32,070 nucleotides of DNA from a virus (lineage: Duplodnaviria > Heunggongvirae > Uroviricota > Caudoviricetes): the IMG/VR virus record IMGVR_UViG_3300034045_000104, one strand, 5' to 3'. Of the stretch, positions 578 to 23,654 are shown one piece after another (the first letter of the stretch is position 1; every line of letters begins with the position of its first letter). Under the pieces are notes generated by a model. It did no database searches, had not been told where the DNA came from, and worked only from the letters and a program-made list of their open reading frames with translations. The translations under genes were made by a program, and so were the position numbers.

Positions 578-599
578 CAATACATGAACGAATACAACG

Positions 600-774
600 A
601 CCTACAGCAAGTAGGAATTATAGAAACATTAATCAGCATCTGCAAAAACCCTTTTATCCACTCATAGTAGAAATTAAAGAACATTCTGCGTGATATGATT
701 TGAAAACAATCTCGTTTTAACAGCAGCCAACCAATATCGGCAACTAAATAATAGATCCACTTTTAGTAGAAATT
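600..774 (-). CRISPR. Orphan Cas12a-type mini-array / crRNA-like cassette (3 handles)
   Basis: Minus-strand handles AATTTCTAC-TAAAA-GTGGAT (774-755), AATTTCTAC-TATGA-GTGGAT (675-656), AATTCCTAC-TTGCT-GTAGGT (619-600). All fit the Cas12a AAUU-UCUAC-loop-GUAGA-U handle with wobble or compensatory pairs. Spacing is irregular. Confidence 0.75.
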
Positions 775-830
775 AATATGTTAATTCAAGTTTAATAAAA
801 AGGTGCAAAATATTACCACCTAAGAAACCC

Positions 831-8501: not shown

Positions 8502-8672
8502 CAAAGCAACTCCTTGCAAGAAGAGACGAAGAGATCCTCAAGGTAAAAATTCGGAGGCGTAGCCGTAGAACCTTTTACCGTCTCGGATCTTGTCTCTGAC
8601 AATCTAGACTGTCAATAAAGAGTGGACGATACATCACACCCAAGCCAGCCTATAAGCCAAGAAGTTACTTTG
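8502..8672 (-). ncRNA. Retron msr-msd-like ncRNA, copy 2 (upstream of RT)
   Basis: 15-bp a1/a2 (CAAAGUAACUUCUUG / CAAGGAGUUGCUUUG, two G-U pairs); candidate branching G at 8657; long msd-like hairpin 8523-8596 tipped by GGC-GTA-GCC; shares AAGAGTGG..CACCCAA..ATAAGCCAAGAAG with copy 1. Confidence 0.78.
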
Positions 8673-9255: not shown

Positions 9256-9293
9256 ACATCACCAATTTATAAAAAACCATTATAGACAGGCAC

Positions 9294-9322
9294 AAAAAAG
9301 CCGCTTTAAAAAGCGGCTTTTT
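9294..9322. terminator. Bidirectional intrinsic terminator ending the crRNA cassettes
   Basis: AAAAAAGCCGC-tttaaaaa-GCGGCTTTTT. Confidence 0.8.
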
Positions 9323-9336
9323 GAATAGGAATATTA

Positions 9337-9467
9337 ACCAACACAAGTTGGGAGTAACAATTAACCCTAAGGTAATCGTCAGGAATTAACAAAGTCTATT
9401 AGACAACTGTGTTAGAACCTCTCCAAAACTTACCTACACAAGTAGAGATTTACGTAGTCTATTAAAC
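9337..9467 (-). CRISPR. Cas12a mini-array cassette 3
   Basis: Near-consensus repeat 9467-9432, 27-nt spacer 9431-9405 (AAGTTTTGGAGAGGTTCTAACACAGTT), half repeat ending 9404, variant handle ACTCCCAAC-TTGT-GTTGGT at 9355-9337. Confidence 0.75.
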
Positions 9468-9570
9468 AGCTAACTAAGAACAAAATACCCTATATGGTGC
9501 TTTTGAGTATCACAAGATTCAAAAAAACACTATATTCATGCTATTATACTCATTAGACCAGGGTTTGCAA
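9468..9570 (-). promoter_or_regulatory. Promoter + leader, copy C
   Basis: TTGCAA(9570-9565)-16 nt-TATAAT(9548-9543); 44-nt core 9487-9530 identical to copies A and B. Confidence 0.8.
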
Positions 9571-9594
9571 TTTTCTATAAAACAAATTAACTCA

Positions 9595-9785
9595 ATCTGC
9601 ATCAGCAAATTTACATAGCCCATTAGTCCAATAATATTTGTATTTCTCATAAGTTTACATAACCTATTAGACAGAAGTTATATTTATACTTATAGATGTA
9701 TCCGCAAAAGCGGAAGTTTTATAGTGTCATTGAGACTTATGAGTTAGGTATCCGCAAAAGCGGAAGTTTACAAAGTCTATTAAAC
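9595..9785 (-). CRISPR. Cas12a mini-array cassette 2 with variant TCCGC/GCGGA handles
   Basis: Repeats 9785-9750 and 9736-9700 with handle AACTTCCGC-TTTT-GCGGAT; 13-nt spacer 9749-9737; 27-nt spacer 9699-9673; degenerate repeats 9672-9654 and 9628-9595. Confidence 0.8.
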
Positions 9786-9867
9786 AGCTAACTAAGAACA
9801 AACTACCCTATATGGTGCTTTTGAGTATCACAAGATTCAAAAAAACACCTATATTCAAGCAATTATA
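9786..9867 (-). promoter_or_regulatory. Leader copy B with -10 box
   Basis: TATAAT at 9867-9862 with no consensus -35; 44-nt core 9805-9848. Confidence 0.7.
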
Positions 9868-9868
9868 G

Positions 9869-10031
9869 TCATTCACAAATTGGAATTAACGTAGCCTATT
9901 AGACCCGCTCAGACATAAGTTTCCTCAGCCAAATCTACACAAGTAGAAATTCTCCTAGTCTATTAAACGCAAGAGCTAGCCAACCCTGACCATGAATCTA
10001 CACAAGTAGAAATTCTCCTAGTCTATTAAAC
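9869..10031 (-). CRISPR. Cas12a mini-array cassette 1 (consensus repeats)
   Basis: Two identical 36-nt repeats GTTTAATAGACTAGGAGAATTTCTACTTGTGTAGAT (10031-9996, 9968-9933), 27- and 28-nt spacers, degenerate terminal repeat about 9904-9869. Confidence 0.93.
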
Positions 10032-10136
10032 AGCTAAATAAGGACAAACAACCCTATATGGTGCTTTTGAGTATCACAAGATTCAAAAAAACACCTATAT
10101 TCATGCTATTATAGTGATTAAGACCAGGGATTGCAA
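10032..10136 (-). promoter_or_regulatory. Promoter + leader, copy A
   Basis: TTGCAA(10136-10131, inside cas12a)-17 nt-TATAAT(10113-10108); 44-nt core 10051-10094. Confidence 0.85.
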
Positions 10137-13100
10137 TTATCTAACATATTTAAGAAATGCCCAAAATACTTTTCGTTTTCTAAAAACAAATCAACCTTGT
10201 CATCAACTGCAGTCTCATTGATTTGCTGTAAAGCCCATAACCCCTTCACCCCAATTAAATAAGCGCCCAACATATCAGTAGAGCAGGGCATATTACCTGC
10301 ATCCAAGGAATTGTAATAACTGCCATCAGAGCAACGAATGGGGGATAAAACATAATCCAAACCACCTCGCCCGTTAGATTGCCTCATTTTAAAAACCAGA
10401 TTCAATAAAAAGAATAAATCTCTAAAAAACGCAGCTGAATTAACCTCTAAGATCACTGGCAATATATCTTCACCATCCTTAAATTCAATATCAGCATTAA
10501 TCAACAACGACTGCAATTCTTCATTAACATTAATACATTCAAATTCTTTTTGGGTCTTGTCATAAAAATAACGCTCATCTCCATGAGTGGATGCCACCCA
10601 TTTTGTTTTATAACCAGTAAAATCCCGTTTAGAAAACATTGGCTCATAATCAAAACCAATATCAAAAACATTGAATTCTTTATTAAAACGAACACCTTCA
10701 AACTTACCTAAGAAAGACTTCGCATTTTTCATGTTTTTATATTGAAACCTGATCAAATTAACAAAACCTGATTTCGGACAAAGCGATGTTGTATAGCTTG
10801 GATTAGCAATAAACATGGCCCCCGCCTGTTTTCCTAGCATTTTAAGCGATTCAAATTTAGGTGCCAATTGATAAGCATTTAAAACATGACCCGCCTGGCC
10901 AATAGTCTTTTCTTTTAGTACCATAAAATTAAGCTTATTTGATAATGCAATCAAGAATCGGTCATATATTTGCGCCTCAAACTTCTGCCTAGCTTGCTTG
11001 AAACCAGCATCCAATCCATCCACACATAGTACCGCATTATGCTCAATCATTAATCTTGTAACCCTATGCAAGACGGTACCAAGAAAACCTTGTTTTAATT
11101 CTTTAATCCCATCAACAGCAGCCCATGCCTTTCTTGATGCGTTTCTTTTCAACTCTCTATCTTTCAAGATAACTTGATAATCAGTAACTATTTTGTTGGG
11201 GTCAACGACCTTATCAAGTGTATCATGATCGATAATTTTTCCTGATTGGTCCATTACAACATAGTAAAGAAGATTCTTTTCACCACGTTTTAAAGCCAGT
11301 ACATTTATTTTCTTTTTATTGGCTCGAATCACTTCATTATTGAAGTTGCGGTTAAAGTAAAAAGATTCTTTTGCGCCTTGATGGTTTAATGTGATGCTAA
11401 AATTAAATTGAAAATGTTCCTTAGTGTATTTCTTATCTTTAATAATATCATAAGCATAAGTTGCTGTTTTATTTTTTGCATTGGGATTTTTATTCTTAAT
11501 TGGAATCCCTGCTTTATGCACAATCATTTGTTCCTTGCTAATTAGTGCGGGTCGCCAAAAAAGCTCACCACCTCCATTTAATTTGATAATTGGCGCTTTC
11601 AAGTTCACTTGAGAGAACAAGTTTTTAATGTACATCGTGTGTATACTATCACGCCCTTTTGAATGGGGAGAAAAATCCATATTGTAGATTTGGAATAAGA
11701 ATAACTTACCACTTTCAACAGCCGCATCGATGTAATCATTTTTGATACAAGTAAAATCAACTTTATAAGCGGCCTTTTCAACTTCTACATAAAACTCACT
11801 GACATTGGTATAAGTCGATGTCTTACTGAAATTATAATTAAACTGGTTCCAAACAGGATGAATTTTAAGACAGCCCTTAAAGTAATCAATGACCTTATGA
11901 CAGTCATCTAAATTGAATTCAGCCTTATCAAAACCATCCTTTGGCAACCCACCTTTGGTATGTGAAGAGCGATTAGTAATATCGATAATTTCATCACTAG
12001 GATTAAAGAATTCACGTCTATTCAACGCTGAAATAAAAACTTTAGGACCCATTTTATTGAAGCCAGATACCATGGAGTAATCCATTTTATTGTAGCCAAC
12101 ACCATCTGGGCATTTGATTTCATTCAAAAATGCTTTTTTCTTCGCAGCTTTTACAGGGTTAAAATGCTCATCAAATTTAAGCGTGTAATCAAAGAGCTTT
12201 TTATTATCTTGATTAACTATCCCCAGGTAATACAAACCATCTTTTTCAAACATAACAGATGAGGATGCCTGTTCTTGACCTGATGACCAACCACTGAGTA
12301 ATTGATAATTATCAAAGTTTAACTTGATCTTCTTACTAGTTGATTTTTTCTTAGTTACATGATTTCTGACTTTGTTATAAAGCAAAAACATTAATTCATC
12401 TAGATGAGAATAAACATCCAGGAACCCAGAATAAAACAAAGAATCATGATTGAGGGCTTTAGTCATATCAATAGCAGCTTTATTTTCAACCAAATGAAGC
12501 GGCCTATAAGCTACAACGAACGCGTTCATGCACTCCAATAAGGACTGAATTATTTGAACTTGCTTAAATCCCTTGCCGCCTTCGTCTTCATCATTTCTTG
12601 TTTTTGGTAGCCTTCTATTGGCATCTAGAAAATCAAGGCATTCAATTGTCTTATATAACTCACGAGCCTTGTCATAAGACTCTTTTAATTTGATATAAGA
12701 ACCAACAATGCCAGATTGCACAGGCAATTGCGTTTTCAATTCTGATAAAATAGAATAAAAACCATCATCAGAATTCAGCGTATTAGCATATTTGATAATG
12801 AGCTCATCCATCTGACCGATACTGACAACCGACACATCATTTAGATTGTTCTCACTTAGCACGACATCAATTAATTTATAGTCACCAAATATAGCGTTAG
12901 ATAAGAATTTAATTTTGTTGGTTTTGATATAAATAGCAGTCGCGTCACGCTTGCTCAGCGATAATATTGTTTGACTCAAAGAATTAAAAATACCATCCTT
13001 TGACTCTAACATCTCAACAGCGGCATTAAGTGCGGCAATCATTTCCTTATCAGTATCGAAAAACGCAGGCACAAACGACAAAGAGCCCCCTTCACCAAAT

Positions 13101-13990
13101 ATTTGACGTTGAAGTTTTACAAAAACGCCAAACCTTGAGATGTCTTTATTGACTGCTAATAATTCATATATAAAGCTATTTATACCCTTGGTACGAGAGC
13201 CATCCTCATGACTAACACCTAGGAATTTTGCATTGTAATTATTTATATTGTTCTGAGCGACATAATCAAAAGCCTTGCTTAATTCAAACAACTCATCACT
13301 CTTATGTAACACATCCAATAAGCCATCAAATCTTTTGTCTTGCTCACCCAACCCAAGAACATTATTAAAGGCCAATTTATTTTTGAAAAACAATTCTAAA
13401 TTCACATCAACGATACGATAGGCCAGGGCATTAGATTTGGACTCAGATGAAAACAAGCTTTTCTTTAGCTTAAAGTAATCCATAAAATAACTGGTAAACT
13501 TATTAAATCCATGGACTATTTGAATGTCTTTATAGTCACAATCTTGCTCATCCATCCACTCAGGCAAAACCTTCACCAAAAATGCTGATTTCAAAAGAGC
13601 GCTTAAGCCAATAAAGCATTTAGCAACATGCTTTCTTAACTTGTCTTTACTAGAATCATAGGCTTTAAAAGCCTTTTGCATGCGCTTGGTCTTTACTTCT
13701 TTTGACTCATCACCTTCATCAGATGTACCAATCACAGACCGATACAACTCATAGTGGGACTCAATCAATGCGGCATCAACCTTAAGGCCTGCAAGACAAC
13801 GCTTGATGTAATCACGATAGTAAGCATCAGCAAATCCTTTTACAGCCAAAAAATCCTTAGCTCTTTGCTTATCTTGTTCAACAAATCCCTTTTCTTTAAT
13901 GTGTTCCAGAGTTTTACCGACCGGAATTAGTTTTTGGCGAATAGTTTTTGTCACTTGGTATACACCGGTGCTTTCATCAAAGACACTCAT
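10118..13990 (-). CDS. cas12a: Type V-A Cas12a (Cpf1) homolog, predicted nuclease-dead
   Basis: 1290 aa; N-terminal KTIRQKLIPVGKT, KLNFDN..LSGW, NKMGPKVF, KLNGGGELF. RuvC-I LALKRGEKNLLY (D>K), RuvC-II LCVDGL (E>D), RuvC-III TDMLGAY. Adjacent Cas12a-type repeats. Confidence 0.95.
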   Translation of the reverse strand: MSVFDESTGVYQVTKTIRQKLIPVGKTLEHIKEKGFVEQDKQRAKDFLAVKGFADAYYRDYIKRCLAGLKVDAALIESHYELYRSVIGTSDEGDESKEVKTKRMQKAFKAYDSSKDKLRKHVAKCFIGLSALLKSAFLVKVLPEWMDEQDCDYKDIQIVHGFNKFTSYFMDYFKLKKSLFSSESKSNALAYRIVDVNLELFFKNKLAFNNVLGLGEQDKRFDGLLDVLHKSDELFELSKAFDYVAQNNINNYNAKFLGVSHEDGSRTKGINSFIYELLAVNKDISRFGVFVKLQRQIFGEGGSLSFVPAFFDTDKEMIAALNAAVEMLESKDGIFNSLSQTILSLSKRDATAIYIKTNKIKFLSNAIFGDYKLIDVVLSENNLNDVSVVSIGQMDELIIKYANTLNSDDGFYSILSELKTQLPVQSGIVGSYIKLKESYDKARELYKTIECLDFLDANRRLPKTRNDEDEGGKGFKQVQIIQSLLECMNAFVVAYRPLHLVENKAAIDMTKALNHDSLFYSGFLDVYSHLDELMFLLYNKVRNHVTKKKSTSKKIKLNFDNYQLLSGWSSGQEQASSSVMFEKDGLYYLGIVNQDNKKLFDYTLKFDEHFNPVKAAKKKAFLNEIKCPDGVGYNKMDYSMVSGFNKMGPKVFISALNRREFFNPSDEIIDITNRSSHTKGGLPKDGFDKAEFNLDDCHKVIDYFKGCLKIHPVWNQFNYNFSKTSTYTNVSEFYVEVEKAAYKVDFTCIKNDYIDAAVESGKLFLFQIYNMDFSPHSKGRDSIHTMYIKNLFSQVNLKAPIIKLNGGGELFWRPALISKEQMIVHKAGIPIKNKNPNAKNKTATYAYDIIKDKKYTKEHFQFNFSITLNHQGAKESFYFNRNFNNEVIRANKKKINVLALKRGEKNLLYYVVMDQSGKIIDHDTLDKVVDPNKIVTDYQVILKDRELKRNASRKAWAAVDGIKELKQGFLGTVLHRVTRLMIEHNAVLCVDGLDAGFKQARQKFEAQIYDRFLIALSNKLNFMVLKEKTIGQAGHVLNAYQLAPKFESLKMLGKQAGAMFIANPSYTTSLCPKSGFVNLIRFQYKNMKNAKSFLGKFEGVRFNKEFNVFDIGFDYEPMFSKRDFTGYKTKWVASTHGDERYFYDKTQKEFECINVNEELQSLLINADIEFKDGEDILPVILEVNSAAFFRDLFFLLNLVFKMRQSNGRGGLDYVLSPIRCSDGSYYNSLDAGNMPCSTDMLGAYLIGVKGLWALQQINETAVDDKVDLFLENEKYFGHFLNMLDNCNPWS

Positions 13991-14864: not shown

Positions 14865-14921
14865 TGTTATTTATATATACAATCATAGCCCTGCGAGATA
14901 ATCAAAAACCATTCCAACAAA

Positions 14922-15992
14922 TTAAGCCGCTTTCTTAAATATTGGATTTCTTCCCATCTGAAACTCCAAATTACTTTTGGCATATTTATTAACATACACA
15001 AGAATTTGATTCATTTCACTACTTGGAAATAGCAAAGTGTAGTGTGACTTAAACACTTTCAGCTTAATACCATTGATAATACATTCATCTCCTGCATTCA
15101 ATTTCTTTGCCAAAAACCCATCAAGTGCTTCAAGTCCTTTATAGTTATTAAAATACTTAAACATTCTTTTCACCGCACCCCAAAGCTCCTCACAATAACG
15201 ACCATATCGATGCTCAGAACCAAAATAATCACCATCACTACATCCCAAAACCCAAGACTCACTCAACTGTAAGCCATCTTTTATTTTTTTACAGTCTCTA
15301 AAGGTGCCTGCTATCCTAATACCTGCCTTGGCATGATAGGCGCCGTTAATAGCATCAGGGTCAAACACATTTATAAAGTCATCTAAAGCCTCATCTAATT
15401 TAAAAACCTCATCAAAAGCCTTAAAATCCCATTTATCAACATTGACAAAAGACCCACCAATGATATTGCTACACGTATAATGACAATCGATCATATGTTT
15501 AACTCTTGTCTGGAAAGCTTGTTTTAATTCATCATAGGCATTGTTGGCCAGTGATTTCATATCAAAGGACATATCAAAGCTCCCTTTAAGCCACTCAACA
15601 TCCTTATGGGCATAGATGTCTTTATATGCAGCTATCGCCTTCTTTAATTTAAGCCTGACACCATCAACCGTTCTTTGATAGCCATATCCCATGATATTTC
15701 TAAATACATTGGTATCGCCATAACAAGCCAAACCAATACCCACAAAACACATTTTCACACCATTAAAATAAAAATAATCAGATGTCTCACCCTTATTCAA
15801 AGCATAAACAGCATTAGAAAGCCCATCATCAACACACAACATCCCACAATAAGCATTGGCTTTATCGTAATCACCATTAATCCTCTCAGTTTTACTGAAA
15901 TCAACATTGGCCAACAAGTCAGCTCTAAAATCTTCATATTTAATAATTTTCATGTATTCACCAATTTCTAAAATTCCATTATAATTTGACAC
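14922..15992 (-). CDS. Hypothetical protein (356 aa)
   Basis: Long co-oriented ORF ending KKAA; no confident family. Confidence 0.75.
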   Translation of the reverse strand: MSNYNGILEIGEYMKIIKYEDFRADLLANVDFSKTERINGDYDKANAYCGMLCVDDGLSNAVYALNKGETSDYFYFNGVKMCFVGIGLACYGDTNVFRNIMGYGYQRTVDGVRLKLKKAIAAYKDIYAHKDVEWLKGSFDMSFDMKSLANNAYDELKQAFQTRVKHMIDCHYTCSNIIGGSFVNVDKWDFKAFDEVFKLDEALDDFINVFDPDAINGAYHAKAGIRIAGTFRDCKKIKDGLQLSESWVLGCSDGDYFGSEHRYGRYCEELWGAVKRMFKYFNNYKGLEALDGFLAKKLNAGDECIINGIKLKVFKSHYTLLFPSSEMNQILVYVNKYAKSNLEFQMGRNPIFKKAA

Positions 15993-16018
15993 AAAAAAGC
16001 ACCGCTTAAAACGGCGCT
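15993..16018 (-). terminator. Intrinsic terminator
   Basis: Minus strand AGCGCCG-ttttaag-CGGTGCT-TTTTT. Confidence 0.6.
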
Positions 16019-16067
16019 ATTCACTATTGAATATTAAGCTGCAGCTCGCTTGTGTTTTAATTGTTCA

Positions 16068-17431
16068 TTGACATCCTCACCGCCCTAAAGGACGATGATT
16101 CCTAAAAGAATTAGGCAACTAACGATCGCTCGTACAGTTGAGGTTCCTGCTTCATAGAGACTGCCAACGCACTCTCTCCACAGGCTATCGCGACAAGCCC
16201 TGCCGCTAAAATATTTAATGCAGCGTTTAAGTCTGCATTTAGTTCTAATCCACATACCAGGCACTTAAACAACTCTTGGGTTTTTCTGTTGTCTTTGTGT
16301 GTAAATCCACAACCACTACATTTTTGAGAAGTGTATTTTGGGTCTATCTTGATTACATCATTGCCCTGCCATTGGCACTTATACTCAAGCTGGCGAACAA
16401 ACTCGCCCCAAGCTTGCTCAAGGATCACTCGATTCAACCCAGATTTTGCCTTAATGTTTTTACCAGGGCTTTCCATATCGCCTTTAGCTGATTTACTCAT
16501 GTTTATGATTTTCAAATCTTCAACAAAAATGATAGCGTGGTTTTTGCTCAATTGTGTTGAGGTTTTATGAAGAAAATCGTGACGAGTATTTTTAATCAAA
16601 GTATGCAGCTTTGAAACCTTAAGTTTTTGTTTTCTCCAATTATTAGAGAACTTGACCTTACGCGCTAAGTTGCGTTGCAGCTTAGCTAGTTTGGTTTTAT
16701 TAATTTTGCCAGAGTTAACTGGTGCCACTACCAGCCCATCAGAACAAGTCACAAACTGTTTGACTCCCAAATCAATACCAATAGCAGAGGTAGCTTTTGA
16801 TTCAGCATTGACAGCAGTTTCAACCTGAACTGACATGTACCAACCATTGGCACCTTTGGATATGGTTATATTCTTTGGTGTACCAACAATCTCTTGAGAT
16901 TTAAAGAAACCAACCCAACCAATTTTAGGCAAGTACACCCTGCGGTTATCGAACTTAAAGCCCTGAACATACCTGAAAGCATTGGATTGGTGCTTTTTCT
17001 TAAATCGTGGCAATCTTTTGAGTGGTTGTTTCTTATCGAAACAATCCTTAAAAGCCTTTTCCAAATCTTTGAGTTTTTGTTGTAGAACCTGGCTATGACA
17101 TTCTTTCAAGAACCCATATTCTTCTGATTGTTTCCACAAGGTCAACCAGTAGGCGGATTCATTGTACCAGTAGATATTTTGTTTTTGCTCAAGCCTAGAG
17201 ACACACATTGCCAATACTTTATTCCAAGCAAACCGAGCATGACCACTAAAGACATTGAGCTTGCGCTCAATATTAACATCGGTCTTTAACTTGAATTTAT
17301 AGGCTTTGCGTATATTCATAGTTGGGAGTTTACCAAATCCTATTCTCAAAACTTGAGAATGGAATTAAATTAAACATTAAAAAAAGGCTTATATCCCCGC
17401 CATGAATGACGGGGTTTTACGCCTAAAAGTG
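16068..17431 (-). mobile_element. IS200/IS605-family non-autonomous element (tnpB only)
   Basis: Left end TTAT|CAC...CCCCGTCA-TTCA-TGGCGGGG hairpin (17414-17395); right end TCATCGTCC-TTTA-GGGCGGTGA hairpin finishing GGATGTCAA at 16068; no tnpA. Confidence 0.85.
16111..17349 (-). CDS. tnpB: TnpB RNA-guided endonuclease
   Basis: KAYKFKL N-terminus; Ruv[17 protein letters not shown] all intact; CSGC/CLVC zinc finger. Confidence 0.95.
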
Positions 17432-17464
17432 ATAATTAACAAGATATTATAGTTTCACTGCAAT

Positions 17465-17678
17465 TCAAGCAGCGACTTTAAATGTACGCGGTTGATTCAC
17501 CTCAACCACTTTAAACTCAGCACCATATTTCTTATTTACCCCACCACAAAAGACACATGCCTTAGATTCATCCATAAAACCCTTAATTTTGAAATAGGGC
17601 TCATATGAATATTTATAACCACGCTTGATGCCCCTAATGAAATAACCGTCCTTTACTGATCGCAGGGCATAATACATA
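17465..17678 (-). pseudogene. 3' fragment of IS3-interrupted gene
   Basis: Removing the IS and one TAT copy joins ...ITVD to MYYALR... in frame. Confidence 0.8.
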
Positions 17679-17708
17679 TGTAATGGTCAAGTTTTATCGG
17701 AGACATTT

Positions 17709-18548
17709 TTAGCCACATTTCCTTAATTCATTAAATTTCTGATTTGGAGTTAAATAATCAATAGCAGAATGTAATCTTTTGTAATTATAGAAATAAATAT
17801 AACTTTCAACTTCTGTAATAACTGCTTCATGATTAATAAACCTCAAATGGTTTAATCGTTCTGTTTTTAAATTTCTAAAAAATCTTTCCATAACAGCATT
17901 ATCCCAACAATTACCTCTGCGACTCATACTCCGAGTTATTTTTAAACCTTCACAATACACGGCAAACATGTTTGCCGTGTATTGTGTGCCTTGGTCAGAG
18001 TGAAACAATAGATTACTTGTGTCTGGTTGCTTTCTATTAATAGCATTGCTTAATGCCGCTTTTGCTAATGTGGCATCGGGTGTTTTTGACAAAGCCCAAC
18101 CAACTATTTCTTTTGTGCCTAAATCAAGTACACTTGCTAGATAACTCCAGCCTTGGTGGTTACGAATATAAGTTATGTCACCAACCCAATGTGTATTGAT
18201 TCTTGATTGTTTAAACTGTCTATCTAGAACATTCTCAATCTTCATATCACATATACCGCTATTGGGGTAATAATGCTTTTTCTTTGGCTTAATCGCCACT
18301 ATTTTAGCCATTTTCATCATGCTGGCTGTTTTATGAAGGCCAATATTGATCCCTTCAAGTTTTAATTGTTGTTGCATACGCCTTTTACCATATGAATGCT
18401 TAGTTTCAATGGCTGTTTGCTTGAGAATTGAGATTATCTTATTCTTTTCCCCTGCAAGTGGCTTTTCCTTTGATTGGTCGTAATAGGTGCTTTGATTTAA
18501 ATCAAAAACATCGCATAATTCCGTGATTGTATATTTAGGATTTGCCAT
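17709..18548 (-). CDS. IS3 transposase OrfB (DDE/rve)
   Basis: WVGDITY, HSDQGTQY, DNAVMERFF motifs; the -1 frame is open from the A6G site to this ATG. Confidence 0.93.
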   Translation of the reverse strand: MANPKYTITELCDVFDLNQSTYYDQSKEKPLAGEKNKIISILKQTAIETKHSYGKRRMQQQLKLEGINIGLHKTASMMKMAKIVAIKPKKKHYYPNSGICDMKIENVLDRQFKQSRINTHWVGDITYIRNHQGWSYLASVLDLGTKEIVGWALSKTPDATLAKAALSNAINRKQPDTSNLLFHSDQGTQYTANMFAVYCEGLKITRSMSRRGNCWDNAVMERFFRNLKTERLNHLRFINHEAVITEVESYIYFYNYKRLHSAIDYLTPNQKFNELRKCG

Positions 18549-18574
18549 CTTAAGTTCTTTGATTTTAATTGCTT

Positions 18575-18880
18575 TTAATCTTCTCGAATAAAGATGGCTG
18601 CAGCCTTTTTTAAGATTTCATTATCTCTTTTAGCTCTCCATAATTGATTTTTTAAACCCTGTATTTCTTGTTGTTCTGCAGTTAATGCTTTCTTACCTTC
18701 AGGGGTATTACCAACAAGTTCATCAAGATATTGTTTCTTCCAACGTGAAACTGCGGTAGAACCAGCTCCTGAAATATCAACAATTTGTTGATTTGTATAA
18801 CTTTCATTAACCATTAATTTGGCATAATCTAATCTTTGTTCAACTGTAAATGACAACCTTTGTTTTCTTTGCTTTGACAT
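18575..18880 (-). CDS. IS3 transposase OrfA (HTH)
   Basis: HTH plus leucine-zipper-like end ...ENEILKKAAA-type (RDNEILKKAAAIF). Confidence 0.9.
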   Translation of the reverse strand: MSKQRKQRLSFTVEQRLDYAKLMVNESYTNQQIVDISGAGSTAVSRWKKQYLDELVGNTPEGKKALTAEQQEIQGLKNQLWRAKRDNEILKKAAAIFIRED

Positions 18881-18943
18881 TTTCTTACCTCGTTTTGTCT
18901 ATTATAAGGCTAAAAATGTCTCCGAGTTTATTAAACCATTACA

Positions 18944-19485
18944 ATATCCACCGTAATATCTTTAGTAGGTTTCTTTATTCTGGGGAAATACTCTTTGCGC
19001 ACTTTAGCTATTTTTGACTCATCAGCACTTAATGTTAACTTGACAGTGTTATCGTCATTACAGCCATCGAGCAACTCAATTAATTGACCTGTTGATTTGA
19101 CCCCAACATCAAAAGGCTCTTTAACATCATGCTCAGCACGGGCAAAAGCCCTAACCGTAACACCAACTTGTGCCAACTGCTCAACTGTTAATGCTTGCTT
19201 GCACCCAACATTAAACAAGTTGCAGTATTGCTTAAAAGACAAGCCCTTACCGTTTTTAGTAAATGTATCACCAACGTCAATATGTGATTTTAAATTGCTT
19301 TTCATCTCTTCATATGTGCCGTATGATTTGTTATTGTCAAATATATAGCGATACACCCACCAATCACGACATCTCTTGCCTGATGCCTCCCATGTATTAT
19401 TAGAACCAGACATTAATAAAGGAATGAACCTACCATCACCTAAATCTATAAACTGCTTTTCATACAAGATTTCAAAACACATCAC
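18944..19485 (-). pseudogene. 5' fragment of IS3-interrupted hypothetical gene (about 250 aa originally)
   Basis: ORF reads into the IS end (last residues IVMV come from the IR). Confidence 0.8.
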
Positions 19486-19533
19486 ATCACCAATATTCTA
19501 TTATTCACAATAATGAATTATAAAAATGCTCAA

Positions 19534-22500
19534 TTATGCCGCTTTGTTTTTATTTGAAACAAATTGATTCATATCCTCCAAATCCCGAACAAATTGATAG
19601 ATGATTGTATCCATATGTAAGAACTCAGTATCAGATAATAGCGGATCACCAAAATCTAAACCCTCGTTAGCTACTTCTCGCTTAAATGCCACCATCTGCT
19701 CTTGATAAATATCAATAGAACCTTCAAGCATTACATATTCGATAGTTACCTTTTTAAGTTGGCCAGGCCTTAATAACCGTGAATAACATTGAGCCTCATT
19801 TTTGTTCAGCCAATCCCTGCCGTAAAAGCAAGCATAGCTTGCTACCTCGACATTTTCCCCCTCGGCCAAGCATTTTTTAGTGGCCAGTAATATATCAATA
19901 TTCCCATTCTTATACTCATCATTAAGCAATTGGGCTCGTTTTGGCGCAGTTATAGCACCAGTATAAACCAATGACTTAAAACCACGTAAAGCTAACATGT
20001 CGTGTAATCTGTTAATCGTATCAGGTGAATCGGCAAATAAAATACATTTCTCCCCATCACCAACCCTTTTTATCAAGCTATCAACACAGTAGCGGTCTTT
20101 AGATGTGGGCTCTGTATGAATGCCAATAACACCACTGTCCTTATTTAATACAAAAGGCTTGTTACAAGCTGCTAATACCGCATTGATGCGAGGCAATATA
20201 CTGTGCATAGATGTAACCTCACCATCTTTTACCTTTTTCATTCTCTCCATCCATACATGCTTAAATTCAGTACATACTTTAAGATAATGCTCTAAATGCT
20301 CATCGTCCCAAGACAAATAAGTATTAATTACCTCAGGTTTTGGCAAATCAACATGCTTAACGCAATCAGGCTCACTTGTAACCCTGCGCTTCATAAATGG
20401 AGCCAATAACTGTCTATATTCACCAACATTACGAATCTGGGGGATCTCTCTTTTTGCCCCTTCATCCATGGTATCTGAAAACATATTTGTAACCCATTTC
20501 ATAGTTACAAACATATCCATAAACTCTTTATTCGAGCTAAATGAGTCATTCATGTTATTAACATGATGAGGCATTAAATGCCCATGTAAACCCCAGGGCA
20601 TATGCGAGCACCCGTCACCCGCACAGGCAATTAACAATGGCAATATATTGCGTGCTTGATTGGGAATAGGGGTGCCAGTCATAAGAATTAATTTCTTAGC
20701 ACTTAATTGTCTTACCGCCCTTGATTGTAAGGTTGACGTGTTACTCAATAAATGCGCTTCATCGGCCAACACAAGCCCACAACGGCGCCTTAAATGATTG
20801 GCATACGTCTTGTTAGGCTTTGTTCTATCAGGCAAGCAAGAAAGACGTGAATAACTTACAATGTTGATCTTTTTTAAGTTGTTTACCGTTTCCAATGAGT
20901 CAATAACATTAACATCATTAATATCAATATAATCTGACAAATCCTCTTTTATTTGTCTTATAAACTCGAACACTAATTTTGACATAACAACGATCAAGCC
21001 ATGCTTTACATTAGCTAGCAATATAGAGGCTAATATTTGCCTAGTCTTACCCAAGCCCATTTGAGCACCTAATATTGAACCTACTGGACTAAGCGTCAAC
21101 TCACAAATGTCATCCAATTGAAATTTCCAAAGCCATTTTTGAAGCAGAAGTTTTTTAGCCCGGGCATTTATCTCATGATGCAGCTCAGGGAATGCAGCAC
21201 TCTTGCCTTCATACTTGGCAATCCATTTACCACCTTCACCTTTTTGAACCATTTCAAAGTTATCATAAATATATTTTTCAGATAATTTATATTCAGCACC
21301 TTCACAGCTACAATAAAAAATCCCTTGGCGCTCAACCACGTCTATAAACTCACCTTTGTTTATAACTGGCGATATAAAAGAATCCTCCTCAATTAAAACA
21401 TCAACTTTAGCTCTGTACTTGGATTCAGAAATTGTGTTTTCATCAACATAGACAATATGACGCATAGGCTCCACAATCCTTGCCATCTTCCTTGCTCTTT
21501 TCTTAATGTAGTTTATAAGCCCATCATCAACAGTAACAACAGCTCCCGTACTTGAAATTATATTAACTAAATTCTGATAAATAGACATCACAGGATCAGT
21601 TTGCATTAAATGTAACTCACAGTCCAAACGGCCTTGGCCAACATACTTAACATGTTTAGCTAATTTCATTTTGTCATCACATGACTTTGCTGACTTAACA
21701 TAAACGGCATTTAAAACTTTAGCTTGCATTAATCCACATTTAAAACCTAAAATTATTTTACGTCCATTATGCGCCACCCTTACTGATTTATCACCAGTTA
21801 CAGGCATCGTTATTATTGGCTTTGAGAAACTTAATCCACGCTTAGAAATTGAGCAACTACCCATATACTCAGACAACTTTAAGACAGGGTAATTAGATAC
21901 CTTAAAATCTGCATTAACTTTCTCACGAATCATCCCGTCAGTAAATCTATTAAATACACACACAGATGTTTTAACCAAGGCGCCTTGTTCACTAAAGGCA
22001 TTAACTGGCAAGTCATAAATAGCACGTAGATTTTTATCTGTTAACTCAAGCTTGTTGGCAAAATTGGTTGGCAGAACTGCTATAACAATATTTGAAACAC
22101 TCTTTGCCTGTGCTAAAGCATACTCATGGCTTAGCGCACTGGAATTTGGGCCATATTCGCCATAATGATTACAACCAAGATTTTTTAAATGTGGCGATTC
22201 AAGGCTCAAGCTAAATGGTGGATTAATTAGCGAAAAATCAAATCTATCTTTTGAAAACGAAATATTTTCCATGCCAGAATTTATAATATCATAATCAAAA
22301 TCAGCAGCGCTTAAAGCGTCACATAAAGCATCCACGGACTCACCGTGAATATCACATCCAAATAAATGATGTTTTTGAGGGTCAGCCAACCAAAACAGCG
22401 AGCCAACCGCGCAGCTATTGTCCATCAAGGATATCTTACTTCTCTGTGCGTAGCCTTCACTTGATTCAATAATATCCCAGCACAAACGCTGAATATCATT

Positions 22501-22620
22501 TGTTGTAAAAAACTGAGATAAAGTTTTCTTTCGCACCTTATGCAAATTACCAAGACTACCAGGACGTTCAGCTTGTGAACCAAGCGACTTTATATTTGTT
22601 AGATTTTCATACCAAGACAT
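19534..22620 (-). CDS. N6-adenine methyltransferase-SNF2 helicase fusion
   Basis: QFFT, MDNSCAVG, NPPF MTase motifs; GAQMGLGKT, DEAH, MTGTP and QCYSRLLRPGQ helicase motifs. Confidence 0.85.
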   Translation of the reverse strand: MSWYENLTNIKSLGSQAERPGSLGNLHKVRKKTLSQFFTTNDIQRLCWDIIESSEGYAQRSKISLMDNSCAVGSLFWLADPQKHHLFGCDIHGESVDALCDALSAADFDYDIINSGMENISFSKDRFDFSLINPPFSLSLESPHLKNLGCNHYGEYGPNSSALSHEYALAQAKSVSNIVIAVLPTNFANKLELTDKNLRAIYDLPVNAFSEQGALVKTSVCVFNRFTDGMIREKVNADFKVSNYPVLKLSEYMGSCSISKRGLSFSKPIITMPVTGDKSVRVAHNGRKIILGFKCGLMQAKVLNAVYVKSAKSCDDKMKLAKHVKYVGQGRLDCELHLMQTDPVMSIYQNLVNIISSTGAVVTVDDGLINYIKKRARKMARIVEPMRHIVYVDENTISESKYRAKVDVLIEEDSFISPVINKGEFIDVVERQGIFYCSCEGAEYKLSEKYIYDNFEMVQKGEGGKWIAKYEGKSAAFPELHHEINARAKKLLLQKWLWKFQLDDICELTLSPVGSILGAQMGLGKTRQILASILLANVKHGLIVVMSKLVFEFIRQIKEDLSDYIDINDVNVIDSLETVNNLKKINIVSYSRLSCLPDRTKPNKTYANHLRRRCGLVLADEAHLLSNTSTLQSRAVRQLSAKKLILMTGTPIPNQARNILPLLIACAGDGCSHMPWGLHGHLMPHHVNNMNDSFSSNKEFMDMFVTMKWVTNMFSDTMDEGAKREIPQIRNVGEYRQLLAPFMKRRVTSEPDCVKHVDLPKPEVINTYLSWDDEHLEHYLKVCTEFKHVWMERMKKVKDGEVTSMHSILPRINAVLAACNKPFVLNKDSGVIGIHTEPTSKDRYCVDSLIKRVGDGEKCILFADSPDTINRLHDMLALRGFKSLVYTGAITAPKRAQLLNDEYKNGNIDILLATKKCLAEGENVEVASYACFYGRDWLNKNEAQCYSRLLRPGQLKKVTIEYVMLEGSIDIYQEQMVAFKREVANEGLDFGDPLLSDTEFLHMDTIIYQFVRDLEDMNQFVSNKNKAA

Positions 22621-22701
22621 TTTTAAATTCCAATATATTTAATATTAAATAATTATAGATTGGCACTAAAACCAAGCAATAACCCACAATTCTAGGACCT
22701 A

Positions 22702-23199
22702 TTAAATTATGACAACCCGAACATCAAACTCCTCATGCACTTCATTAACATCCACCTCAGACAAAACCACCTTTACTTTCAATTCTCTTTGAAGTTCAAA
22801 CAATGCAGTTTCTTCATTTCCATATTTTTCAATTGCCATGTTCCAATCAATAGCATCAACCTCATAATGAATGACCTCATCTGCTGATGCATTGAAATTG
22901 CGTGATTTTTGAATTACTACTTTAGATGGTTCCGAACACCGACTATCAGACCCATCTAAATTATTCGCTATTGACAGATATGCAACCTCAATACCCTCAA
23001 GATAAGCAGAATCAGAAACATCAATACCCGCACAGAAATGAGCCAATATAATAGATTCAAGCCCATCAACAGCGGCATTAAATTCCAAATTATCAGCAAT
23101 ATCAGACTCTTTCATATCTGATGATATACAAGCACCTCCAATATCTGATTTATCAAAGTCTAGCTCGATGCCAAAACAACCAAGTTTTAAATTATTCAT
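22702..23199 (-). CDS. Hypothetical protein (165 aa)
   Basis: Co-oriented ORF with GAGG SD. Confidence 0.7.
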   Translation of the reverse strand: MNNLKLGCFGIELDFDKSDIGGACISSDMKESDIADNLEFNAAVDGLESIILAHFCAGIDVSDSAYLEGIEVAYLSIANNLDGSDSRCSEPSKVVIQKSRNFNASADEVIHYEVDAIDWNMAIEKYGNEETALFELQRELKVKVVLSEVDVNEVHEEFDVRVVII

Positions 23200-23257
23200 A
23201 AATTATCCTCATAAAATCTCAATAGAATCAATAATAAGAACGCGTGAAAATCAAAAA

Positions 23258-23644
23258 TCACAATACTCCGTGAAGATCTTCACCAGGCTCAAAATATGCC
23301 CAATTAAAATAAACATCCAAATCATTTTCATCAATCAACTCCTTAATTCTGGACACGATACCAGTTGGCGGGCTCCAAGGTGTATCGAAATCAAACTCCA
23401 TACTTTCATCAGAATGGTGCAATTCTCTATAATCACTTACATCACTAACAGAACATTTAACACCCCAAGCCTCAACAACATGGCTATACAGCTCCGAATT
23501 CTCTTTACCTGACACATCGCCAAGCGGAACAATTTTATGGAAATCAAGCACGCCACCCTTACCACAAATTAGCTTTTTTAAAACTCCAATATCGGTATTG
23601 TTTCTACATCTAAAAATAACTTTGTTTTCGCACATATTAGCCAT
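23258..23644 (-). CDS. YubB/DUF1281-like ferredoxin-fold plasmid protein
   Basis: MANMCEN..LDFHKIVP..WGVK..FDTPWSPP pattern. Confidence 0.7.
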   Translation of the reverse strand: MANMCENKVIFRCRNNTDIGVLKKLICGKGGVLDFHKIVPLGDVSGKENSELYSHVVEAWGVKCSVSDVSDYRELHHSDESMEFDFDTPWSPPTGIVSRIKELIDENDLDVYFNWAYFEPGEDLHGVL

Positions 23645-23654
23645 TTATATACTC

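Follow-up and report, generated by a model that had tools for sequence, protein, structure and literature searches.

Why should the repeat handles beside a single cas12a gene differ from one another in the sequence of their stems and still remain paired? The question is raised by a 32,070-nucleotide stretch (the window) of the virus record IMGVR_UViG_3300034045_000104 (Caudoviricetes), which is part of a 143-kb plasmid-like element and encodes a Cas12a protein of 1290 amino acids (10118..13990, minus strand; Pfam REC1, REC2, PI, RuvC_1 and NUC), followed on the same strand by a series of handle-like hairpins. The initial annotation of this DNA had listed the stems UCCGC/GCGGA (two copies), CCAAC/GUUGG, UCUAC/GUAGG and, distally, CCUAC/GUAGG and UCUAC/GUGGA as departures from a consensus UCUAC/GUAGA, and we found every one of them on the minus strand. 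Absent from that list were a further compensated handle, UUUGC/GCAGA, and three repeats without a stem.

Ten paired handles could be aligned, seven in the main locus, each with a 5-bp stem, and three in a distal cassette (all coordinates of the guide loci below refer to the minus strand). Only the first two, H1 and H2, keep the canonical stem, while the other eight differ from it at pairs 1-4, five of them by changes on both sides of a pair. H1, in repeat 1 (9996..10031), has the canonical handle AAUUUCUACUUGUGUAGAU with the stem UCUAC-uugu-GUAGA at 10010-9997, and repeat 2 with H2 (9933..9968, the same stem at 9947-9934) is 100% identical to repeat 1. The handle H4, AACUUCCGCUUUUGCGGAU, in the repeat at 9750..9785, forms UCCGC-uuuu-GCGGA at 9764-9751; its pairs 3 and 4 are both altered on both sides, and its U-17 is replaced by C. 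The second handle of this kind, H5 (9698..9719, stem at 9714-9701), lies in a 22-nt block identical to that of H4. In H7 (repeat at 9595..9628, UUUGC-ugau-GCAGA at 9609-9596) pair 4 changed from A-U to G-C, pair 2 from C-G to U-G, and the AAUU motif to UAAA. H8, AAUCUCUACUUGUGUAGGU, in the repeat at 9432..9467, differs in pair 1, which is U-G (UCUAC-uugu-GUAGG at 9446-9433). H10 (9337..9355) is a handle-like hairpin, CCAAC-uugu-GUUGG at 9351-9338, with pairs 1 and 3 altered on both sides and with A-18 and U-16 lost; a 17-nt stretch and then a terminator follow it on the 3′ side. The distal cassette (599..776), located 9 kb from the main locus on the same strand with no cas gene adjacent, consists of three handle-only units with 5-nt loops: D1 (UCUAC-uaaaa-GUGGA, 770-756), D2 (UCUAC-uauga-GUGGA, 671-657) and D3 (CCUAC-uugcu-GUAGG, 615-601). 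The possibility that the UCCGC hairpin is a minus-strand terminator was rejected, as no U-tract follows it.

The observation that the stems change and stay paired is confirmed, and it is statistically solid. Standard pairs occupied 45/45 pair cells of the ten-handle alignment, three of the five pairs were altered on both sides, and 0/500 shuffles reached the observed pairing or covariation score; when the 3′ partner was slid by 1-3 columns, pairing fell to 28-59%. When as many substitutions as observed were scattered randomly over the stem, the probability of keeping all five pairs was 0.016 for UCCGC, 0.027 for UUUGC, 0.016 for CCAAC and 0.075 for CCUAC. Taken together, six both-side pair replacements occurred over four independent handle types with zero unpaired cells; the joint probability under random placement of substitutions is ~1e-8. 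Nine matches to a motif made up of the paired stem and the invariant bases were found in the 32-kb window, always on the minus strand and always within the two loci; simulating the minus strand as a first-order Markov chain gave an expectation of 0.44. These figures are to be read with the fact that the handles were partly picked for their pairing; with the broken repeats counted, 7/10 repeat units of the main locus keep the stem.

The positions that do not change are as telling as those that do. C-11, U-10, G-6, G-3 and U-1 are invariant, and A-19, A-18 and C-14 nearly so; the stem, a loop of 4-5 nt starting with U, and U-1 were found in 10/10 handles, and AAUU or a close variant of it in 8/10. 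In the pseudoknot of the Cas12a handle, U-10 forms a reverse-Hoogsteen pair with A-18 and is additionally bonded to A-19 (PMC8789034). Variation is confined to pairs 1, 3 and 4, plus a single wobble at pair 2. The states seen are U-A, U-G and C-G at pair 1, U-A, U-G and C-G at pair 3, and A-U and G-C at pair 4. Five of the six double changes are transition pairs, and G-U wobble intermediates for pairs 1 and 3 are still present in other copies, from which we infer a wobble route, that is, classical compensatory evolution. A suggestive single case is the U-17 to C change in the UCCGC handle: it coincides with the change of A-12 and U-13, the bases that U-17 touches in AsCas12a (PMC8789034).

Such a pattern is hard to reconcile with the variant hairpins being decaying relics that no longer serve Cas12a, their pairing being residual or kept for transcript stability only. 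This explanation would fit the complete loss of the stem in three repeats, the disappearance of the AAUU motif from H7 and H10, the lack of targets found for the guides, and the absence of a good -35 box in the second of the three units of the locus. However, the compensated replacements, their joint probability and the absence of any unpaired cell argue against it, as does the invariance of the bases that contact Cas12a, and we consider decay highly improbable.

What, then, would the handles serve? As judged from the alignment to solved Cas12a structures, the RuvC-I Asp of the window protein is replaced by Lys (LALKRGE instead of IDRGE) and the RuvC-II Glu by Asp (CVDGLD), while the RuvC-III Asp, the Nuc Arg and the His/Lys/Lys triad of the RNase are kept; the segments IVHKAG, IKNKNP and IIKDKKYT align with the catalytic His and Lys residues of the RNase that acts on the precursor of CRISPR RNA (pre-crRNA). 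The closest relatives, P0002 (74% identity) and P0010 (51%), have identical RuvC substitutions and likewise an intact RNase triad, whereas P0003 and P0011, the nearest of the canonical relatives, which adjoin cas4-cas1-cas2, lack the substitutions. As the substitutions are common to the 74% and the 51% relative, the inactivating pattern is old and has been maintained. The window Cas12a is very probably DNase-dead, and most likely it binds DNA without cutting it. No Cas1, Cas2 or Cas4 domains were detected in the 38 open reading frames (ORFs) of the window, and cas1, cas2 and cas4 were not found in the 17-kb locus L123, which encodes P0010. The dead Cas12a and the missing adaptation genes had both been overlooked in the initial annotation, and they change the purpose that can be ascribed to the handles.

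The reading that we favour, and to which we give about an even chance, is that the handles are fixed guide scaffolds of an adaptation-less, binding-only Cas12a, and that selection on the hairpin and a small number of key bases shapes their evolution. Each hairpin would form the 5′ handle of a fixed guide RNA that is transcribed from a promoter and serves the neighbouring Cas12a, in which DNA cutting would have been lost and the crRNA-processing site retained, leaving binding without cleavage. Since no spacer-acquisition genes are in view, the first repeat would not be re-copied along the array, and each handle would evolve as its own small gene. Selection would hold the 5-bp stem closed by C-11 and G-6, together with U-10, G-3, U-1 and mostly A-18 and A-19; the other pairs would be free to change provided that they stay paired, mostly by way of the G-U intermediates visible in other copies. 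The repeats that close the mini-arrays are, by contrast, without a stem, as also happens in ordinary V-A arrays. Under this reading the variant handles are presumably bound and processed by Cas12a, the guides probably direct silencing by binding only, and the divergence of the handles may in itself be non-adaptive. Of the earlier proposal that the double substitutions reflect selection for Cas12a loading combined with avoidance of repeat identity, the part concerning selection on the hairpin stands, in view of the compensation and the invariant contact bases, but the part concerning avoidance does not.

To place this variation, we compared the handles with those of other Cas12a loci. In 17 more distant loci with arrays, UCUAC/GUAGA was found in 274/275 paired handles, the exception being a single wobble, as opposed to the altered stems in 8/10 paired handles of the window. 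In other respects the window resembles canonical V-A arrays (handle AAUUUCUACU..GUAGAU): it lies 3′ of cas12a on the same strand, with 36-nt repeats, 19-nt handles, 5-bp stems, loops of 4-5 nt that start with U, U-1, spacers of ~27 nt and a disrupted terminal repeat, and two of its repeats are fully canonical. Unlike such arrays, however, it has no adaptation module, three promoter-leader units replace one array, and the RuvC residues of the effector are substituted. The locus L123 has the same design, with a promoter overlapping the cas12a stop codon and a second promoter-leader copy ~340 nt further on. It has seven handles, two of them as handle-only units, and six of the seven have canonical stems. 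Five are canonical throughout and one differs in its loop only; in the remaining one, the terminal repeat of the first unit, the closing pair is altered on both sides (UCUAA/UUAGA). The contig of L001, the locus of the 74% relative, ends inside the array promoter after cas12a, which fits a repeat-induced assembly break.

Among Cas12a proteins more generally, natural RuvC-substituted lineages look frequent and appear to have several independent origins. Apart from the clade of the window, the 150 nearest Cas12a cluster representatives include 16 in which RuvC-I or RuvC-III has a non-catalytic residue and the RNase His is kept; the RuvC-substituted set includes P0020, P0074, P0080, P0087, P0090, P0094, P0109, P0116, P0124, P0127, P0138 and P0154. 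Five RuvC-substituted lineages were inspected, and handles were readable in four. The stem UCUGC/GCAGA is used throughout in L131 and L133, the latter with cas4-cas1-cas2 beside it; because G-C is fixed at pair 4 in both, a change of this pair is viable. In L127 and L131 the 5′ repeat halves or the loops have drifted while the stem is constant, and no adaptation genes were found in the available flanks. Several stem types inside one locus are what sets the window apart. As regards the individual loci, in L131 (4700-5050) six handle-only units with UCUGC/GCAGA stems and loops alternating between uauu and uguu come after a Cas12a that has Asn at RuvC-I; the 5′ repeat half is not conserved there, and adaptation genes are absent from the 8.6 kb examined. 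The Cas12a of L127 has His at RuvC-I and lies on a 104-kb contig with helicase, RecA and ribonucleotide reductase genes nearby; the 5′ halves and loops of its six repeats (L127 7980-8380) vary by copy, and the stem is constantly UCUAC/GUAGA. The distant Cas12a locus L021 (586-5278) has 12 canonical-stem handles with four loop types, distributed to either side of the gene.

When the minus strand was read past the cas12a stop codon, the guide locus turned out to be three tandem promoter-leader units and not a single array. Each unit is composed of a promoter, a leader of ~77 nt and a short run of repeats and spacers, the repeats being 36 nt including the 19-nt handle, the spacers ~27 nt, and the promoters lying ~85 nt 5′ of the first repeat. 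The main locus begins at the stop codon, on the same strand as cas12a, and is closed by an intrinsic terminator at 9292..9324 (approximate ends), a GC-rich hairpin followed by a T run that was read from the sequence, having been missed by the terminator scan. By promoter scan, units 1 and 3 have TTGCAA-17/16-TATAAT promoters and unit 2 has a -10 box only. Promoter P1 (TTGCAA-17-TATAAT, 10108..10136, 10/12 matches) overlaps the last codons of cas12a; its sequence is found at the contig end of L001 and recurs in L123. It is followed by the leader of unit 1 (10032..10107), by repeats 1 and 2, and by the terminal repeat R3 (9868..9904), which has a broken stem, CCAAU/GAAUG, with 2/5 pairs, and overlaps the -35 region of unit 2. 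Unit 2 consists of a TATAAT box and a leader, without a good -35 box (9787..9867), the repeats with H4 and H5, and the terminal repeat R6 (approximately 9635..9672), with the stem lost. Promoter P3 (TTGCAA-16-TATAAT, 9543..9570) lies inside a copy of the cas12a 3′ end, and unit 3 includes H8 and the terminal repeat R9 (9367..9404), the stem of which is lost as well. In all three repeats that close the mini-arrays the 5′ repeat half is kept and the stem is gone; disruption of the terminal repeat is known in V-A arrays, where it prevents the formation of extraneous crRNA (PMC13187072). Since the 3′ end of cas12a is copied in the later leader units, segmental duplication extending into the end of the gene gave rise to the units.

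Several additional features of the promoters and leaders were recorded. The -35 box and the spacer of P1 coincide with the last cas12a codons (..N C N/K P W S stop), at 10108-10140 and 9543-9580 in the window, and equivalent sites are present at 8536-8565 and 8880-8905 of L123 and in the last 30 bases of L001. All leader RNAs (10045-10095, 9799-9849 and 9481-9531, minus strand) fold into a 9-bp hairpin, GGUGUUUUU / AAAAGCACC, the loop of which is 18 nt. The three copies are identical over a 45-nt core, and the leaders of L123 share with them the short motif AATCTTGTG; a leader 29-mer was not found in viral contigs. Small ORFs in the leaders, on either strand, were rejected, the minus-strand ORF being frameshifted in unit 3 and ribosome-binding sites being absent. 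In the distal cassette, a promoter-like site, TTTGCA-18-TATAAT, occurs at 617-646 on the minus strand, with its -10 box formed by UAAUU of the third distal handle; transcription from this site would begin inside the hairpin, which makes it either a chance site or one that does not serve to make that handle.

The leaders behave quite differently from the handles. The three leader bodies of the window are 93-96% identical to one another and only 38-41% identical to those of L123, and this high identity within the element and low identity between elements indicates that the leaders evolve in concert within an element. The linker and handle of unit 1 (22 nt) are, conversely, 86-91% identical to their counterparts in L123, but 59% and 77% identical to those of units 2 and 3, respectively. 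Throughout the clade, strong purifying selection acts on the sequence of the canonical handle. Judging by these comparisons, the variant handles are derived in the lineage of the window, adjoining homogenised leaders.

This contrast bears on an option raised in the initial annotation, less recombinational loss: divergent handles would protect against the deletion of guides between identical repeats. Neighbouring handles of the window do mostly differ, and engineered AsCas12a arrays use variant direct repeats for that very purpose (bioRxiv 10.1101/747170). Nevertheless, the 800-nt locus still contains exact direct repeats of 53, 45, 37, 29 and 22 nt, the closest pairs of handles are the identical ones (H1/H2, 63 nt apart, and the two UCCGC handles H4/H5, 50 nt apart), and the leaders keep their near identity. 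Reduced recombinational loss is, on this evidence, quite improbable as the cause of the divergence. The engineered set of AsCas12a direct repeats (DeWeirdt et al., bioRxiv 10.1101/747170) nonetheless provides the closest parallel to non-identical, pairing-preserving handles in one array, and the variants tolerated there include U-A to C-G at pair 1 and a change at pair 4, as in the window. It differs in having been designed against recombination of a lentiviral vector, whereas the window keeps long identical repeats and alters pairs 2 and 3.

Several observations weigh against the reading that we favour. The canonical handle is 19/19 identical between the window and L123, despite a Cas12a identity of only 51%, so that strong conservation in this clade extends from the fold to the sequence itself. 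The linker-handle of unit 2 is as little as 59% identical to that of unit 1 next to leaders of 93-96% identity (Fisher P ~1e-4 for leader versus handle divergence), and a fast-changing handle beside a homogenised leader is not predicted by plain drift. In an AsCas12a screen, base pairing alone was insufficient, and although pair 1 C-G and a pair 4 change were tolerated, pairs 2, 3 and 5 tolerated no change (bioRxiv 10.1101/747170); pair 3 is altered in four handles of the window. In favour of the reading, on the other hand, the hairpin is enough for targeting by FnCas12a and the full pseudoknot is not required (PMC8789034). Against it, the AAUU motif, which has been linked to processing (PMC6507119), is lost in H7 and H10. 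Finally, no target was found for any guide in the window, viral contigs, three metagenome-assembled genomes (MAGs), L123 or L001.

The same observations raise the possibility that the variant handles were selected to differ, in order to categorise guides by private loading into the dead Cas12a of the element or by graded affinity. The canonical handle is conserved in the clade, yet specific units carry derived handles beside homogenised leaders. The UCCGC handle, moreover, is present in two copies that are identical over 22 nt, have unalignable flanks and are each followed by a different guide. The contrast between handles and leaders and the paired UCCGC copies are compatible with handle classes that differ in function, without proving that they do. 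The changes at pair 3 are of the kind rejected by AsCas12a, so ordinary Cas12a may use such handles poorly (bioRxiv 10.1101/747170), and the free energies of the stem-loops span a range from -2.5 to -7.5 kcal/mol. Nuclease-deficient I-F3 transposons use atypical repeats that serve the element and that canonical interference cannot use (Petassi et al., bioRxiv 10.1101/2020.07.02.184150). On the other side, a Cas12a fragment was found in just 1/301 genomes of the candidate host order, no known target shows guides with variant handles aiming where cutting would be harmful, and the sister element L123 works with mostly canonical handles. Selection for divergence thus seems to us possible, but rather unlikely. 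In its most specific form, in which canonical-handle guides are open to any Cas12a while guides with UCCGC, UUUGC and CCAAC handles are readable only by the dead Cas12a of the element, it seems less likely still. We also dropped a candidate pair of diverged duplicate spacers after the two UCCGC handles, from which the age of the handle's conservation could have been estimated, as 353/2000 shuffles scored equally high.

The likeness to I-F3 transposons goes further: in both cases there is a nuclease-deficient effector on a mobile element, with typical and diverged repeats together. The diverged I-F3 repeats are known to be still functional, whereas in the window function is predicted from sequence; the CRISPR type and the RNA fold (a Cas6 hairpin) are different, and the atypical I-F3 guide has a known chromosomal target and was shown to be unused by the canonical system, while the comparison for the window is one of sequence alone.

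Could the RNAs act instead on a host Cas12a, either sequestering it, like RNA anti-CRISPRs (Racr), or redirecting it onto its own promoter, like Cracr or CreR? Type V-A Racrs and CracrVA1 exist (PMC10651486; bioRxiv 10.1101/2024.10.29.618823), and like CreR/CreA, CracrVA1 and RacrVA1-3 the window RNAs are degenerate repeat-like hairpins on a mobile element. The layout of H10, with a pseudo-repeat, a pseudo-spacer and a terminator, is similar, and the distal cassette has no adjacent cas gene. However, those RNAs retain the handle sequence of the host, and mimics should copy UCUAC/GUAGA, from which the window stems deviate; among the Cas12a repeats examined, almost all have the stem from which the variants depart. 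Racrs are recognised as repeat mimics away from cas genes and directly behind a promoter, while the handles of the main locus are co-oriented with, and directly 3′ of, the element's own cas12a. H10 itself lacks A-18 and U-16. CreR and Cracr carry a ~10-nt PAM-flanked match (PAM, protospacer adjacent motif) to a cas or toxin promoter, and no PAM-flanked seed match was found in the 32-kb window or upstream of cas12a, nor a PAM-flanked promoter seed match in the three candidate-host MAGs. We thus find decoying or hijacking of a host Cas12a improbable. The Racr-like competition proposed earlier is weakened by the departure of the stems from the conserved UCUAC/GUAGA and by the position of the RNAs beside the element's own cas12a, and the proposal of a crRNA-like regulator is weak too: H10 alone has the repeat-spacer-terminator layout, and PAM-flanked partial matches were found neither at the cas12a promoter nor at any other place in the window.

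The search for targets and for a host was extended beyond the window. Within the window there was no spacer match of at least 17/24 nt, and the best seed matches were at chance level and without a TTTV PAM. Exact 20-mers of three spacers were not found in viral contigs, and no cross-targeting was observed among the window, L123 and L001. The IS3 transposase of the window shares 88% identity with one from a MAG that was deposited as Lysobacterales, which loosely places the host among marine or environmental Gammaproteobacteria. The three gammaproteobacterial MAGs sharing this transposase, taken as candidate hosts, contained no spacer match above noise, and the 301 genomes mentioned above belong to the order containing the MAG with the best transposase match. 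No similar DNA was found in phage or plasmid collections, no Rfam family scored above threshold in the window, and for the gene that lies downstream of the array no homologue is recorded. Searches with back-translated patterns revealed no close Cas12a relatives in viral contigs, genome contigs or JGI metagenomes (best 36%); the relatives were identified by protein searches only.

A difference in gene order upstream of cas12a was also noted between the window (14900-23650) and L001 (2800-5190). In L001, genes for proteins of 232 aa and 128 aa and a ligase-like gene sit directly upstream of cas12a, while in the window size-matched ORFs are split by ~7.5 kb containing TnpB (16111-17349), an IS3 transposase (17709-18880) and a 1028-aa SNF2/methylase-like gene. 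ORF sizes and order suggest that the ~7.5-kb gap consists of insertions.

As an effector, the window protein recalls Cas12c, Cas12m and Cas12k, RNA-guided Cas12 proteins for which binding without cutting is expected and crRNA processing is retained; unlike them, it is a full-length, RuvC-substituted member of the Cas12a lineage, and its activity is predicted. The Cas12a handle is among the most conserved guide-RNA scaffolds, and engineers have screened tens of thousands of variants for a few usable alternatives. The window offers a natural set of alternative stems beside an apparently binding-only Cas12a, and seems to sample handle sequences beyond those known to work, in the company of what is probably a natural dead Cas12a. 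If the variant handles are loaded, they would reveal the range of scaffolds that Cas12a accepts, including changes at stem pair 3, which AsCas12a rejects, and might provide orthogonal handle-protein pairs for multiplexed repression. If they are loaded differently from one another, the window would provide type V systems with their first natural case of guide sorting. Were the sorting private, host or self genes could be silenced while a nuclease-active Cas12a of the host would be unable to make lethal cuts from those guides, which would be a type V counterpart of the private atypical guides in CRISPR-associated transposons. If the divergence is plain drift under structural constraint, the locus would still be a clean natural mutational scan of what a Cas12a handle needs.

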